From an uncultured Bacillota bacterium (GTDB lineage: Bacteria; Bacillota_I; Bacilli_A; RFN20; CAG-826): DNA of 64,000 bases. Below, one piece after another: positions 44,619 through 50,770 of the stretch. The number at the start of each line of letters is the position of its first letter. Position 1 is the stretch's first letter. The notes under the pieces are model-generated. The model was not told where the DNA came from. It ran no database searches and worked only from the letters and a program-made list of their open reading frames with translations. Position numbers and translations under genes: made by a program. Where the stretch lies: assembly GCA_949299565.1 (NCBI GenBank), contig OX437086.1, positions 880,099 through 944,098 of the forward strand, given 5' to 3'.

Positions 44619-44865
44619 TACCTCTTGCCTCTTTAACATTTTATTTTATAAAACTCTAAAAATCACGGCAAAATGCACCTTTTTGTAGAGAAGTGATTTA
44701 ATTTAATTTTAGAGATTTCAAAATATTCAAAATATTTGACCTGCATTTTTTGTGCATATTCATTGTTTGGTGTCCTAAAGATAAAAAATTGCATTTCCGA
44801 GTCTTTTGCCATCCTTCAATATAAAAAACCTATAATGTCGAAACATTATAGGTGTTCTTCTAATT

Positions 44866-44942
44866 GGTGACCCGTACGGGATTCGAACCCATGAATGCAT
44901 GCGTGAAAGGCATGTGAGTTAAGCCACTTCTCCAACGGGCCG
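44866..44942 (-). tRNA. tRNA-Glu (anticodon TTC)
   Basis: 77-nt sequence: acceptor GGCCCGT/ACGGGTC, anticodon stem CATGC/GCATG with loop CTTTCAC, T-loop GGTTCGAATCC, encoded CCA. Confidence 0.8.
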
Positions 44943-44943
44943 T

Positions 44944-45017
44944 GGCGCTTGCTATAGGACTCGAACCTACAACCGATCGGTTAACAGCCGATTGCTCTGC
45001 CATTGAGCTAAGCAAGC
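44944..45017 (-). tRNA. tRNA-Asn (anticodon GTT)
   Basis: 74-nt sequence: acceptor GCTTGCT/AGCAAGC, D-stem GCTC/GAGC, anticodon stem ATCGG/CCGAT with loop CTGTTAA, T-loop GGTTCGAGTCC, encoded CCA; 1 nt from tRNA-Glu. Confidence 0.85.
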
Positions 45018-45326: not shown

Positions 45327-45413
45327 AGTTTTTATTACCTCGTGCATATTATATGAAGAAATAAGAAAAAGGACTAGAATCTCTAATAAACGAGAAACTC
45401 TAGTCCTTTCTCC

Positions 45414-45614
45414 TCAATGCAAGATGGGAGCGTCCCAACTATAATTCATTGAAGTAACGTTTTGTTCGCTGACGCTAACCGTTGGCGGATTAACGATTTC
45501 AGAAGCAACGTTCTGCGCGGCTGATTGAAAAGCGCCATAAATAATGCCCGCCACTGCTCCAAAAATCGCTAGAACAAGAATCATTCCCAAGAATTGTCCT
45601 TTAATTTCTGACAT
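45414..45614 (-). CDS. Small pilin-like protein (candidate divergent Flp-type pilin)
   Basis: 66 aa: short polar leader MSEIKG followed by a hydrophobic helix (QFLGMILVLAIFGAVAGIIYGAF); last gene of the secretion-ATPase operon; lacks a canonical G-x-x-x-x-E-Y processing motif. Confidence 0.4.
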   Translation of the reverse strand: MSEIKGQFLGMILVLAIFGAVAGIIYGAFQSAAQNVASEIVNPPTVSVSEQNVTSMNYSWDAPILH

Positions 45615-45636
45615 TCATTCACCTCCTTTCTTCAAT

Positions 45637-45975
45637 CTAAACAACATATCCGATGATGGTCGCACGTTTGATGGTGATCGTTAATGATTTTCCAAGGGCT
45701 ATCGGTTCATAAATACGGAGAAGCGCGAATTCATAGACTTCGCCGACCATCACATCGTTATCGCTAAGGGCAACTAAGCGGGCTTTTGCCGTCTCCGCTG
45801 CATATCGTTTAATTTCGTTTGTAATTCCGCCACTGATCGATATGCGTTTTCCGATAGTCACAGCTAAAGAATCTAACGATGCATGAAGCGACTGGATGGC
45901 TAAAAAGTCACCACCGAAAGCAAAGATTTGAATAACGAAGAATAAAGATAAAAGGAATCCTAATTTAGAAGCCAT
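45637..45975 (-). CDS. Small secreted/membrane protein of the pilus-like operon (TadE-like position)
   Basis: 112 aa with N-terminal hydrophobic segment; overlaps the adjacent gene; no confident family. Confidence 0.45.
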   Translation of the reverse strand: MASKLGFLLSLFFVIQIFAFGGDFLAIQSLHASLDSLAVTIGKRISISGGITNEIKRYAAETAKARLVALSDNDVMVGEVYEFALLRIYEPIALGKSLTITIKRATIIGYVV

Positions 45976-46630
45976 TGAGGAACCCTCCTAATATTTCCAC
46001 AATCCCGATAACGACCATAATTAGGGCTAAACCGCTTGCCAAAAGCGGCAAAAACGAGAAAGAAGAGAAAGATTCTTTTGTTTCTAGAAGTTTTTCCTCG
46101 CCCTTCATCTCTTCGAGCGCACTGAAAGAATTTAAGAAATGCGATAAAGCGTTCCCGCTCCCACCTTCTTCCTCTAAACGATAAATGCTCAGAAGCAGTT
46201 GTTTTACTTCCGGAGAAGCGAATCGGTTTCCTAATTCTAGATAAGGAGTCAAACTCTTATCCTCATTAAAAGAGGCGAGGAAAGGCGTTATTTCTTCTTT
46301 TATATTTTCATCAGCTAGATAGAATGCGCGCTTTAGCGATTCATAAACAGTTAATCCTGTTTGAACATAAATTGAAAAATAAGAGAAAAATTGAACAGCG
46401 GCGTAGATCTTCTTGTTTTTAACTTTTTCCTCTATTTGCCGACTTCGATTATAAAGGAAGAAGAAAGTCATCATCAAAATTAAAGTTATTGAGAAAGCAA
46501 GGAAGAGATTTCTTGTAAAAAGATAGAAAGCAAGCGCACAAATTAAGGTGAAAAAGAAGTAAAAGAAAAGAAGGAGACTCCCTTTTTTGTTCTTTCTATT
46601 CGTTTTTGGGCGCTTTAAGAAGTTTTTCAT
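45965..46630 (-). CDS. TadC-like (T2SS-F family) inner-membrane protein
   Basis: Start at MKNFLKRPK with RBS AAAGGAGAA; N-terminal TM helices, cytoplasmic helical domain, C-terminal TM helices; adjacent to the secretion ATPase. Confidence 0.55.
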   Translation of the reverse strand: MKNFLKRPKTNRKNKKGSLLLFFYFFFTLICALAFYLFTRNLFLAFSITLILMMTFFFLYNRSRQIEEKVKNKKIYAAVQFFSYFSIYVQTGLTVYESLKRAFYLADENIKEEITPFLASFNEDKSLTPYLELGNRFASPEVKQLLLSIYRLEEEGGSGNALSHFLNSFSALEEMKGEEKLLETKESFSSFSFLPLLASGLALIMVVIGIVEILGGFLNGF

Positions 46631-47330
46631 TCGTCGGTTCTCCTTTCTTCTCTCCAAGAGGATAAGCGTGTCGCATATAAAGATAGAAACTCAATAATGC
46701 GAAGAGGAAATAAAGGCTTCCGATGATCGTGTAAAGAAGAGAGTTACTGACTAAATCATCGAAATTACTGAGCCCAAATCGCACGAACAAAAGAATGACG
46801 ACGCTGAGACCCCATAAAGAAAGAAACTGATAATTGTTTTTCTTTCTTATTTCCTTTTCTTTTTTCCTCGTTGTTTCATGATGCGCGATTGTCTCTAATA
46901 ACGGCGAAGAAAGTTCTATAACATTCCCGCCTTGTTCTTTATAAAGAGTCAGAAGCGAAAGGAACATCTCATAATCATCACTTTGAAAATAAAGATTAAG
47001 GCGTCTCAAGCGTTCATCGATCTCGTCATTGGAAATGCTCTTTAAATAATCAAGAAACTCACCTTCAGCCCCTAATGAAGCGCTTTGATAAGCTTCTTCA
47101 ATCGAAGACGTTGCTGCTAAAGAACTGAAGAAGTTCTGGATAAAGTGCCCGGCTTCAAGCTCCTTCCTCTCGTTATTGAGGGCTCTTTTTAAGAAAGGCT
47201 TCATTATCAAAAATAAAACAAGCAGGAAAGCAATGACGATAATAATGCTCACCAATAAATCGCTGAGAATGAGGTAGGCTAAAAAGCCAATTAGAAGTGA
47301 TAGGACAACAATAATAAAGTTCTGTTTCAT
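46596..47330 (-). CDS. TadB-like (T2SS-F family) inner-membrane protein
   Basis: 244 aa with the same TM/helical/TM organisation; 4-nt overlap with the ATPase gene. Confidence 0.55.
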   Translation of the reverse strand: MKQNFIIVVLSLLIGFLAYLILSDLLVSIIIVIAFLLVLFLIMKPFLKRALNNERKELEAGHFIQNFFSSLAATSSIEEAYQSASLGAEGEFLDYLKSISNDEIDERLRRLNLYFQSDDYEMFLSLLTLYKEQGGNVIELSSPLLETIAHHETTRKKEKEIRKKNNYQFLSLWGLSVVILLFVRFGLSNFDDLVSNSLLYTIIGSLYFLFALLSFYLYMRHAYPLGEKKGEPTNEKLLKAPKNE

Positions 47331-48274
47331 TCATCTCTCCTTATAAGTGTTTCGTACTCTCCTTTTTCATTTAACCTTGCAATCGATTCCAAATAACGAT
47401 GTTCGCCATTTTGAGTACTTTCTCTTTTTAAATAGACGAAATAGGGAAAATGTGCCCGAATATCTTTCATAAGCGAATCTTCATCAACGTTTGGATGATA
47501 AAGTTTAGTTAAAAATAAAAGTCGCAAAGGAATTAACTCACTCTTTAAAGCATGGATGGATGTGATGAGCGGATGTCCGGAAGTCGCACTGACTAAAACT
47601 TCATAGGTTTCAGCTGCCCGGCACTCGCCAAAAACTAAATAATCGGGGTTCGCCCTCAAGGCGTTCGCAATCAAAACACTGACATCATTGAACGGCTTTC
47701 TTCCAGCGACCCAAATATTAAGGTCAAGTTCTTCATTTTCGATAAGAGATAATTCATCGCTGTGGTCGATGATTATCACACGCTTCAGATCTTTCATTTT
47801 TCCTAGAAGCCACTTCTCTAATTCTGTTTTGCCAGAGCCGGAAACGCCCCCGATAATAATCGACTGATTGTGCTCGATCAGTTCTAAAAGCAATTCCTTC
47901 GCGCCCGGGCAAAAGAAATCCTTATCCTTATCAAGGATTGAATCGCATGAAGCGATTCTTAAAGAAAATAAATAAGTTTTCTCTCCCTTGTTTCTCCCGA
48001 TTGAATGATGAAGCGCGTTAAGACGATATCGCCCGAAAGAAACGTCGATGACAGGAGATTGAAAAGAAAGAGAGACGCCTAAACTATTCGCAAGACGATA
48101 TAAAAATAATTCAACTTCTTTTCGTGAAACCTCAAGATCTAAAACTTGCCGTTGAACACCCTGTTTTAAAAGATAAAATCGTTTTCCATCATAAGAAATA
48201 TCCGTGACTCTTTCTTCTAAAAAAGGGGCAAGGAATGATTTCTCTAAAATATTAAGCGCTTCCAGAGTTTCCAT
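47327..48274 (-). CDS. Secretion ATPase of the CpaF/TadA/VirB11 family
   Basis: Walker A IIGGVSGSGKTE, Walker B region RVIIIDHSDE, and YLVFGECRAAETYEVLVSATSGHPLITSIHA resembling the His-box region of CpaF-type ATPases; RBS AAAGGAGAT. Confidence 0.8.
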   Translation of the reverse strand: METLEALNILEKSFLAPFLEERVTDISYDGKRFYLLKQGVQRQVLDLEVSRKEVELFLYRLANSLGVSLSFQSPVIDVSFGRYRLNALHHSIGRNKGEKTYLFSLRIASCDSILDKDKDFFCPGAKELLLELIEHNQSIIIGGVSGSGKTELEKWLLGKMKDLKRVIIIDHSDELSLIENEELDLNIWVAGRKPFNDVSVLIANALRANPDYLVFGECRAAETYEVLVSATSGHPLITSIHALKSELIPLRLLFLTKLYHPNVDEDSLMKDIRAHFPYFVYLKRESTQNGEHRYLESIARLNEKGEYETLIRRDE

Positions 48275-48665
48275 AGTTATCTCCTTTTTGAATTGAAAAT
48301 GAACGAGACGCTAGATAGTCAACAAGATGATATTGAGCTGAAAAATTCAGGCGTAATGATGACGGATAAAGTTCTCCTTCAAAAAGAAAGGAGTCTTTGA
48401 CACTGATTGTATAGTTGTATTCGATTCCAGGGCGCGAAGAGAAATTCCTTAGAAAATAAGAATCTAATAGTTCTTCCAAGTCAGTAAGAAGAAAGTAAGG
48501 CTGCGCTCCTTCTCCTTTTAAGCTAAAAGCATCAACCGCTAATTGAATGTCTTGGTAATCAAGTTTTAGCCAGGTCTTATCAATGAAGTTATAAGTTAAC
48601 GAATGATCAAAAAGGAAGGCGCTCAGGAGAAAGAAAAGCGAAGAAAAAAGAAAATTTAACATCAA
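48252..48665 (-). CDS. Hypothetical protein with N-terminal signal/anchor (pilus-operon gene)
   Basis: 137 aa; hydrophobic N-terminus; overlaps flanking genes. Confidence 0.45.
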   Translation of the reverse strand: MMLNFLFSSLFFLLSAFLFDHSLTYNFIDKTWLKLDYQDIQLAVDAFSLKGEGAQPYFLLTDLEELLDSYFLRNFSSRPGIEYNYTISVKDSFLFEGELYPSSLRLNFSAQYHLVDYLASRSFSIQKGDNYGNSGSA

Positions 48666-49723
48666 TAATCCTCAATGACGCACCACGTCGAGTTATCGCA
48701 CTCACCAAAATAATTCGTATCATGAATGATGCTGAAGCGATATAAAAGCGAGTCCTCAGCGATTTCGCCAACGCCTTCGATTTCCAAAGCGAAATTATAT
48801 GTTCGCGTTTCTCCAACCTTTAACGCCGCTAAAGGAATCTCTTCGAGAAACGAGCAATTTTCCGGGTGGTTGGCCCCATCATAGATTCTTTTCGTGTCTA
48901 AAGATATCGCTAACGGGTCCTTTAAAAGGAACGAGGTTGTTTGATCATCGTTTCTGACGCCTTTAAGCGAAAATTCAATAGCGGTTCCGTAACGATCAAT
49001 AAATGGCGATAAAAACGAGAAAAGATCGTGATTATCGTACAATTTCAAAGTCGCATTTTTAAAACTTAAAGGTTTAAGAGATCCATCATAATCGCGAGTT
49101 TGAAAACGAAGCTCAGAAAGAGAAAAGATTCCGTTCTCCGGATTATAAAAATTTTCACGACATCCCGCAGTCAAAAACGAATAAGGCAAAATGTGCGGAC
49201 GTCCGTTTTTAAAGATCGTTCCGCTTCCGCGTTCGCTTTGAATCTCAAGATTATCATTTATTAAATATTCTTGTCCTTCAGGCTTATATCCGAAGGCAAA
49301 ACTTGTGACCCAAGACCAAGTTCGCTCTAGCCCCTCCCATTCAGAGAACACTAAATTTATCGTGTTACGACCTGCATATAAATTTTCGTGCGGAATCAAA
49401 AAAGAATATGTGCGTTCAACATCGCCTTTGACGCTAATTCCGCCGAGCGCTACTCGCGAAAGAGAATAACCGTCTTCCCCATATGTTGCCGTCGTAAGCG
49501 GGTTTTTAAGATGTGCCTCCAATGAGAGGTTCATATTGTGGCTCGGAATAAATCCGAAACGTAAATTGTAGTCAATGTCAATTGAACGCAAAGGACGAAT
49601 TACTCCATCAGCAAAACCTCCTAAACGAGACGGTGGCTGAATCTCGTTTTGCAGGCGATATGAAGATAAAAAAGGCACAAGAAAAAGAAGGGAACAAAGC
49701 CCTTTAATTTTTAAGGACTTCAT
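48662..49723 (-). CDS. Secreted protein of the pilus-like operon
   Basis: 353 aa with N-terminal signal peptide (MKSLKIKGLCSLLFLVPFLSS); no family recognised. Confidence 0.5.
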   Translation of the reverse strand: MKSLKIKGLCSLLFLVPFLSSYRLQNEIQPPSRLGGFADGVIRPLRSIDIDYNLRFGFIPSHNMNLSLEAHLKNPLTTATYGEDGYSLSRVALGGISVKGDVERTYSFLIPHENLYAGRNTINLVFSEWEGLERTWSWVTSFAFGYKPEGQEYLINDNLEIQSERGSGTIFKNGRPHILPYSFLTAGCRENFYNPENGIFSLSELRFQTRDYDGSLKPLSFKNATLKLYDNHDLFSFLSPFIDRYGTAIEFSLKGVRNDDQTTSFLLKDPLAISLDTKRIYDGANHPENCSFLEEIPLAALKVGETRTYNFALEIEGVGEIAEDSLLYRFSIIHDTNYFGECDNSTWCVIEDY

Positions 49724-49725
49724 TT

Positions 49726-50088
49726 TTAACTCAAAAAGCCTTCCAGCGTCTTAGCAAATAAACGATTCCGAAAACGTCGATAATTTTTCGGATCCATGAA
49801 TTCCAACCACCACCAATTGTAATGACGGCCCCGTTCTAAACATTCGCAAAGAAATACACGCCTCCCAAAATCTGGAAGCGATTCGTAATAATCTAAAATT
49901 TGCAAAACAAATTGAACGCTTAAAGAATCATCCTTGTGTCGCATCAAAAAGTCTCTGTCGAGATCGTATACATGTTCATCGGGACTATAACCAATCTCGA
50001 CAAGGGCTTGACGATACATCGCACCTAAAAGACCCATTACAGCGTTCCTGTCATTGAGTTTTAGATCAATAGCAATAACGTCACTCAT
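49726..50088 (-). CDS. Hypothetical small protein, first gene of the pilus-like operon
   Basis: 120 aa; basic/aromatic C-terminal region (RHYNWWWLEF...RRFRNRLF); family not recognised. Confidence 0.45.
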   Translation of the reverse strand: MSDVIAIDLKLNDRNAVMGLLGAMYRQALVEIGYSPDEHVYDLDRDFLMRHKDDSLSVQFVLQILDYYESLPDFGRRVFLCECLERGRHYNWWWLEFMDPKNYRRFRNRLFAKTLEGFLS

Positions 50089-50167
50089 CTTTCATTTTCT
50101 CCTTTCACCACTTATATAGGACAAAGCCAGAAAAAAGTCCCGCATTATTTTTATTTTTCTCAATGTC

Positions 50168-50770
50168 TTGCAAGATATAAGAGTAAAACTTACAATCGGT
50201 TTAATGATTTTATTATCCGGACCTTCCGCCAGCGGCAAAACCGAAGTTGCAAAAATGTTAAAGTTGCTTTTCGGAATCCAAAAAGCAGTCACGCACACGA
50301 CACGCTCACCACGCAAAGGCGAAAAGAATGCGATCGATTACTTTTTTGTCAGCAAAGAAAGGTTTCTCGAACTTAAAAAGCAAGACTTCTTCGTCGAAAC
50401 AACTTTTTATAACCAAAATTATTATGGATGCGGCAAAGATCAAATTTCTCCCGCTAAAGTTGTGGTCGTTGATCCTAACGGCTTGAAAAGTTTTTTGGCA
50501 TTAAACAATCGCGGTGTCGTCTCTTTCTTTTTAAAAGCAAAAGAAGAAACGCGGATTAAAAGAATGAGAAATCGCGGCGACAGCGAAGAAGCGATTGCTT
50601 CTAGAATTTCTAATGATCGCATCGAATTTGCAAGCAATAAAATTCCGCCCACGAATTTTCAAATCACGACTGATGATTTACCGCTTGAAGGCGTTGCTCA
50701 AGAGGTATATAAGCTCTATTTAGCGGCTCTTCAAAAGCAAGGAATTTCCTTATCCACCGCTTCTAAATAA
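50168..50770 (+). CDS. gmk: Guanylate kinase
   Basis: P-loop LSGPSASGKTE and GMP-binding region THTTRSPRKGEKNAIDYFFV; start uncertain (alternative ATG at 50204, MILLSGPS). Confidence 0.85.
   Translation: MQDIRVKLTIGLMILLSGPSASGKTEVAKMLKLLFGIQKAVTHTTRSPRKGEKNAIDYFFVSKERFLELKKQDFFVETTFYNQNYYGCGKDQISPAKVVVVDPNGLKSFLALNNRGVVSFFLKAKEETRIKRMRNRGDSEEAIASRISNDRIEFASNKIPPTNFQITTDDLPLEGVAQEVYKLYLAALQKQGISLSTASK

Follow-up and report, generated by a model that had tools for sequence, protein, structure and literature searches.

The 64-kb stretch of DNA analyzed here (the window) carries an eight-gene minus-strand operon. Its products probably make up a minimal machine of the type IV filament class, belonging to the Tad (type IVc) lineage. 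A sequence-only reading had proposed a Tad/Flp-like operon at this locus, and the family of the ATPase, the fold of the platform proteins, and profile links to the Tad loci of Firmicutes bear that proposal out. The generic minimum for a type IV filament is an ATPase, a platform, and a major pilin (PMC6668835). The evidence consists of ATPase family membership and motif integrity, the platform fold, the paralogy of g5 and g6, homology to DUF4320, a pilin-like pattern, conservation, and synteny; we infer filament formation, subunit cleavage, roles for g1 to g3, and a function in adhesion. Judged by sequence comparison, the nearest relative of the operon is an uncharacterized module, genes 36 to 40, found on conjugative plasmids of the pLS20/pXO2/pAW63 type and of Listeria and Enterococcus.

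The eight open reading frames span exactly positions 45414 to 50088, from the operon's first gene, g1 (49726 to 50088; 120 amino acids [aa]), to g8 (45414 to 45614; 66 aa). The tight, overlapping arrangement that had been described is confirmed by the gene junctions, which overlap or nearly abut (overlaps of 23 nt at g3/g4, 4 nt at g4/g5, and 11 nt at g6/g7), and by independent gene callers, which predicted the identical eight genes on four public contigs. The sole gapped junction is g7/g8, where 22 nt separate the genes and include a strong Shine-Dalgarno sequence. Directly 3' of the g8 stop codon, a scan and reading of the sequence identified a terminator-like hairpin (45365 to 45412, minus strand) whose 20-bp stem encloses an 8-nt loop and is followed by a T-rich tail; it is likely the 3' end of the operon transcript. 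The divergent intergenic region between g1 and gmk (50089 to 50173) contains a minus-strand promoter-like site, TTGCAA-18-AATAAT, which is a candidate operon promoter on weak consensus evidence; the count of promoter-like sites in this region was not above shuffled expectation.

Comparison with relatives, which had been suggested as a check, showed that the operon and its flanks are common to about 80 species. Essentially every complete locus in these related species-level genomes contains all eight genes in unchanged order, arranged as gmk (divergent), g1 to g8, acpP (encoding acyl carrier protein), tRNA-Asn, and tRNA-Glu, and this positional conservation in some 73 to 80 other species-level genomes is far beyond chance. 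The two tRNA genes that had been noted near the operon lie downstream of it with acpP in between (tRNA-Asn, 44943 to 45017; tRNA-Glu, 44865 to 44941), and the pair occupies the same position 3' of acpP in 18 of 20 related loci scanned. The sequence-only reading had also given the GC content of sampled stretches of the operon as about 35 to 38%, lower than in the lipoprotein block, and considered that the operon may have been acquired. GC content does not set the operon apart: it is 39.2%, versus 39.5% for the window, which places the operon at the 36th percentile of 4.7-kb windows, with single genes ranging from 36.0% to 43.3%. The idea of acquisition is not supported, as the operon matches the window in GC content and relatives keep the tRNA genes beside it. 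Since the gmk-operon-acpP arrangement is kept across about 80 species, the locus is old and vertically inherited, an ancient core feature shared throughout a lineage of uncultured Bacilli from gut and rumen that have small genomes (in the one sized example, the longest contig is about 1.06 Mb). The truly low-GC stretches of the window lie at 24 to 33 kb and 42 to 44.8 kb, both at about 32%.

The g4 product (47327 to 48274; 315 aa) is, from its sequence, a secretion ATPase of the CpaF/TadA/VirB11/archaeal-GspE clade with intact catalytic motifs, and by the same evidence it is the motor of the system. An ATPase of the CpaF/TadA/VirB11 type had been predicted, and the Pfam T2SSE model matched it above the gathering cutoff (3.1e-14; 52.9 bits versus a cutoff of 24.9). 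The best NCBIfam matches were the TadA-like model TIGR03819 (3.6e-24; 86 bits, versus 44 bits for ComGA) and VirB11 (2e-20), both under their own cutoffs. Residues invariant across the family include the Walker A residues G148, K149, T150, and E151; D170/E174; E217/R219; and the His box residues G233, H234, P235, and H241. When the family profile was searched against the PDB, archaeal (Archaeoglobus) GspE ranked first (7e-31), followed by HP0525 (2e-25), FlaI (7e-24), and, in fourth place, solved CpaF (8e-23; 84 bits), with PilB/GspE at about 1e-8. The hhalign score was highest against the pLS20-type ATPases (376, at 100% in the profile-profile comparison), followed by CpaF-type ATPases of Firmicutes (289) and TrbB (120), and in a rough neighbor-joining tree the pLS20-type ATPases formed the sister group of the window family.

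This kinship extends beyond the ATPase. Genes 36 to 40 of pLS20 are collinear with g3 to g7, and g8 occupies the slot of gene 41, with no homology detected between the two. Equivalents of pLS20 genes 36 to 41 occur in Bacillus plasmids of the pXO2/pAW63 type, in Listeria plasmids of the pLmN1546 type, and in plasmids of Enterococcus faecium, and in order and sizes these modules match the window operon: first comes a protein with an N-terminal transmembrane helix (about 125 aa), then an ATPase of the CpaF/VirB11 family, two membrane proteins (about 245 to 275 aa), a DUF4320-type protein (about 120 aa), and a small single-helix protein (47 to 80 aa). Both the plasmid modules and the window locus lack a linked prepilin peptidase, TadZ, and CpaB. 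They differ in that the plasmid module sits inside a conjugation operon beside adhesins, whereas the window locus is chromosomal, with housekeeping flanks and vertical inheritance; the plasmid ATPases are 400 to 470 aa long with an extra N-terminal region; and the small plasmid proteins have no detectable similarity to g8 and do not begin with MSE-x-K-G-Q.

The plasmid relatives raise the alternative that the operon is a remnant or domesticated Gram-positive conjugative type IV secretion system (T4SS), in which g4 would be an ATPase of the VirB11 type and the accompanying small membrane proteins would transfer DNA or protein instead of assembling a pilus. The closest ATPases outside the lineage do lie in the conjugation operons of 584 Gram-positive plasmids (362 typed as conjugative), the plasmid modules adjoin TrbC/VirB2-like and VirD4 genes, and the solved VirB11 protein HP0525 is the second-best PDB match. 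The pLS20-type genes have been listed as "Unknown" or, for the ATPase, "putative VirB11" (PMC8557374). We nevertheless consider a T4SS quite improbable: VirB4, VirD4, VirB6, relaxase, and TrbC genes are all absent from the locus, which is flanked by gmk, acpP, and tRNAs; about 80 species show strictly vertical synteny; the partner proteins have the GspF/PilC platform fold, a fold of type IV filaments and not of T4SSs; CpaF is the best-scoring match even for the plasmid ATPases, whose genes precede DUF4320 genes just as in Tad loci; and TrbB is much more distant than the pLS20-type ATPases. Grouping of the ATPase with conjugative VirB11 in the absence of a pilin partner had been named in advance as a finding against a Tad-like system, and here the outcome is divided, as the nearest proteins are indeed the pLS20-type "putative VirB11" ATPases but the setting is one of TadB/TadC-like and DUF4320 genes and the grouping is with CpaF, not TrbB.

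The products of g5 (46596 to 47330; 244 aa) and g6 (45965 to 46630 and 221 aa, or 230 aa if the start is the TTG at 46657) are paralogues. Two N-terminal and two C-terminal transmembrane helices of g5 flank a helical cytoplasmic domain, and its high-confidence model retrieves the cytoplasmic domains of GspF, PilC, and SpoIIIAB by two independent methods. In hhalign comparisons, g6 aligned with the protein in the TadC position of Firmicute Tad loci (97.6%; P=2.7e-12; 211 columns) and with the pLS20 gene-39-like family (91.9%), and g5 aligned with its pLS20-type counterpart (92.7%, profile-profile) and, weakly, with the protein in the TadB position of those Tad loci (33%; P=4.5e-4). Because of these fold matches and profile-profile links, g5 is assigned from its model as an inner-membrane platform protein in the TadB position and g6, from its sequence, as a second platform protein in the TadC position. 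The earlier description of two TadB/TadC-like membrane proteins is upheld on these grounds and not by the T2SSF check, since neither protein reached any curated Pfam or NCBIfam threshold. A platform split over two genes is the arrangement typical of TadB/TadC. In the proposed mechanism, hexameric g4 on the cytoplasmic face would drive a heterodimeric g5/g6 platform, which would extract the small hydrophobic g8 protein from the membrane and polymerize it into a thin filament.

The protein encoded by g7 (45637 to 45975; 112 aa) begins in the family alignment with M-[SGA]-[SY]-[KNS]-[LI]-[G/S/A] and then F-[LI]-L-S. It has a hydrophobic helix and a small beta domain, and its D23 does not vary. 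The window protein matches Pfam DUF4320 with an E value of only 0.12, and hhalign links it to the pLS20 gene-40-like family (92.9%) and to Pfam-confirmed DUF4320 proteins of Firmicute Tad loci (81%); in the Firmicute plasmid loci compared, the DUF4320 family adjoins ATPase and membrane protein genes. By these profile matches g7 is a DUF4320-type protein and a candidate minor pilin with a TadE-like role, and it, perhaps together with g3, would supply minor or priming subunits.

The g8 product is the candidate major pilin. It has a 6-residue leader, MSEIKG, a hydrophobic helix of about 22 residues, and a hypervariable tail. Proteins at this position (47 to 69 aa) share a near-invariant start, MSE-x-K-G/A followed by Q-L-L. 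Among 68 distinct sequences, M1, K5, L9, F18, and F29 never vary, position 6 holds G (58 sequences) or A (10), position 7 mostly holds Q (57) or T (10), and mean pairwise identity falls from 58% over residues 1 to 30 to 17% over the remainder. The family comprises 108 clusters, all of 46 to 135 aa and all aligned from residue 1, and exactly one g8-type gene follows g7 in 73 of 73 loci extending that far. Its Shine-Dalgarno sequence, AAAGGAGGTG, lies 7 nt upstream and is the strongest ribosome-binding site in the operon. A 66-aa pilin-like protein had been proposed here; the leader, helix, and variable tail favor that description, but the Pfam Flp and pilin models, including TadE, did not, since family members matched Pilin_N (four members) and TadE, Tad, and Arch_flagellin (one each) weakly and below threshold. 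The canonical G-x-x-x-x-E-Y site is absent, as had been stated, and so is Glu5, which is nearly universal in bacterial type IV pilins; the start looks like a prepilin signal but not like the Flp motif.

These shortfalls, together with the lack of a peptidase linked to the operon, also fit a small membrane protein or Sec-exported peptide that is not a pilin, with the ATPase and platform serving another membrane function, and reading of the window sequence suggests that S-A-A before Q, C-terminal to the helix, could be a signal peptidase I site. That site is not conserved, however, as 31 of 68 sequences have K or N at position 31 (-3). Hardly any variation occurs in the first nine residues, unlike a Sec n-region and as expected of a peptidase recognition site, the hydrophobic stretch is long for a Sec h-region, and the gene order, size, and strong Shine-Dalgarno sequence match those of major subunits of Tad-type loci, leaving a nonpilin g8 very improbable.

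A competence-type pseudopilus, a short filament with which these auxotrophic, reduced-genome bacteria would draw DNA from the environment to the membrane, to salvage nucleotides or to be transformed, would be the same type of machine, a type IV filament, and the operon is universally kept in a small-genome lineage. The 6-residue g8 leader ending in K-G may also resemble the short leader of Bacillus ComGC. Reduced-genome gut lineages have been reported to keep competence genes (PMC12306168). We regard this use of the filament as unlikely, since g4 is far from both ComGA and the PilB/GspE clade, the platform consists of two half-size genes as in Tad instead of a single ComGB, g8 lacks the F-T-L-x-E N-methylation motif, ComEA and ComEC genes are absent from the window and flanks, and the hypervariable g8 tail, together with the variable secreted g2 protein, points to a structure exposed at the surface and prone to interactions.

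The Tad-type machine that we favor would be a reduced one. Firmicute Tad loci, such as those on a Clostridioides plasmid, Bacillus cytotoxicus pCh38_53, B. cereus p30090_2, and pXO1, share with the window the core order of CpaF-type ATPase, TadB-position protein, TadC-position protein, and DUF4320 protein, and their platform proteins likewise escape Pfam T2SSF. They differ in carrying Peptidase_A24 and, in all four loci compared, TadZ/CpaE (a TadZ-like AAA ATPase) and CpaB/RcpC, all absent from the window locus. Their ATPase can be assigned to CpaF without ambiguity, scoring 216 bits to the solved protein versus 84 bits for the window family. With the canonical Tad/Flp systems of Aggregatibacter and Caulobacter (TadA/CpaF, TadB, TadC, Flp, TadE/F, TadV, TadZ, and RcpA/C), the operon has in common the ATPase clade, the two-gene platform, a very small major subunit without a globular head, and a small minor-pilin-like protein; it lacks the Flp G/XXXXEY motif, TadV, TadZ, and RcpC/CpaB, and curated Tad-family models all scored under cutoff. 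No secretin match was found at the locus, and a secretin is not expected in a monoderm. The earlier statement that the window holds no prepilin peptidase gene is correct, with no Peptidase_A24 among its multi-pass membrane open reading frames, and a sequence-motif screen found no A24 peptidase within 10 kb on either side in 80 related loci. From their sequences, g8 (after K-G/A) and g7 (after G/S/A) would probably be cut by an A24 prepilin peptidase whose gene would lie in another part of the genome. The g8 leader, which ends in K-G, is followed by Gln at +1, and Glu5 is missing; such a start may resemble the class III signal peptides of archaea. Further likenesses to archaeal Epd-like pili are the ATPase, whose best solved relative is Archaeoglobus GspE, and the four g8 family members with subthreshold matches to archaeal Pilin_N; these pili differ from the window in its bacterial host, the Firmicute DUF4320 type of g7, and the lack of a linked EppA/PibD-type peptidase. 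Epd-like pili are the proposed ancestors of Tad, and prepilin peptidases are sometimes shared between systems, with MSH loci lacking one (PMC6668835).

Upstream of the ATPase gene, g2 (48662 to 49723; 353 aa) encodes what its sequence indicates is a fast-evolving, secreted or membrane-anchored protein with a hydrophobic N terminus, 14 to 26% identity to its homologues, and no Pfam match. Nearly all loci have an open reading frame of 310 to 420 aa with a hydrophobic N terminus at this position. The AF2 model of g2 is poor (pLDDT 41.6), residues 200 to 335 alone reaching 55 to 84 with a predicted all-beta C-terminal half, and a fold search returned generic beta-sandwich matches only. A secreted protein always encoded in the operon might suggest a T2SS-like pseudopilus that exports g2, possibly with other proteins, and builds no external filament, and secretion is a role to which type IV filament machines have been recruited repeatedly (PMC6668835). 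We give this proposal very little weight: the g2 homologues have ordinary Sec-type hydrophobic N termini and, because the bacterium has a single membrane, need no dedicated exporter, no secretin or other T2SS-specific part is present, and the variable g8 tail argues for exposure. As part of a Tad-like filament, g2 would be a candidate adhesin or filament-associated or tip factor. The likeliest role of the filament is probably adhesion to host surfaces or other cells, as suggested by analogy and by the variability of g2 and the g8 tail.

The cytoplasmic g1 protein may be an accessory or assembly factor or a regulator. It has no Pfam or NCBIfam match and no PDB sequence match; its conserved motifs are YRQxLxxxGYSPDxHxYDL and LEKGRHYxFWW. 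Homologues were found by tblastn in 39 loci, and a nonhydrophobic open reading frame of the same size occupies the g1 position in most loci. The g3 product (48252 to 48662 or 48665; 136 to 137 aa) opens directly with a hydrophobic helix (M-x-N followed by hydrophobic residues), has conserved R-x-F and P-Y-F motifs, and is a putative membrane-anchored accessory subunit. Its hhalign match to the pLS20 gene-36-like family (41% probability; P=2.8e-4; 103 columns) is suggestive only; by position, g3 is the equivalent of pLS20 gene 36, and in 79 of 80 loci a g3-like open reading frame (118 to 149 aa) runs up to the start of the ATPase gene.

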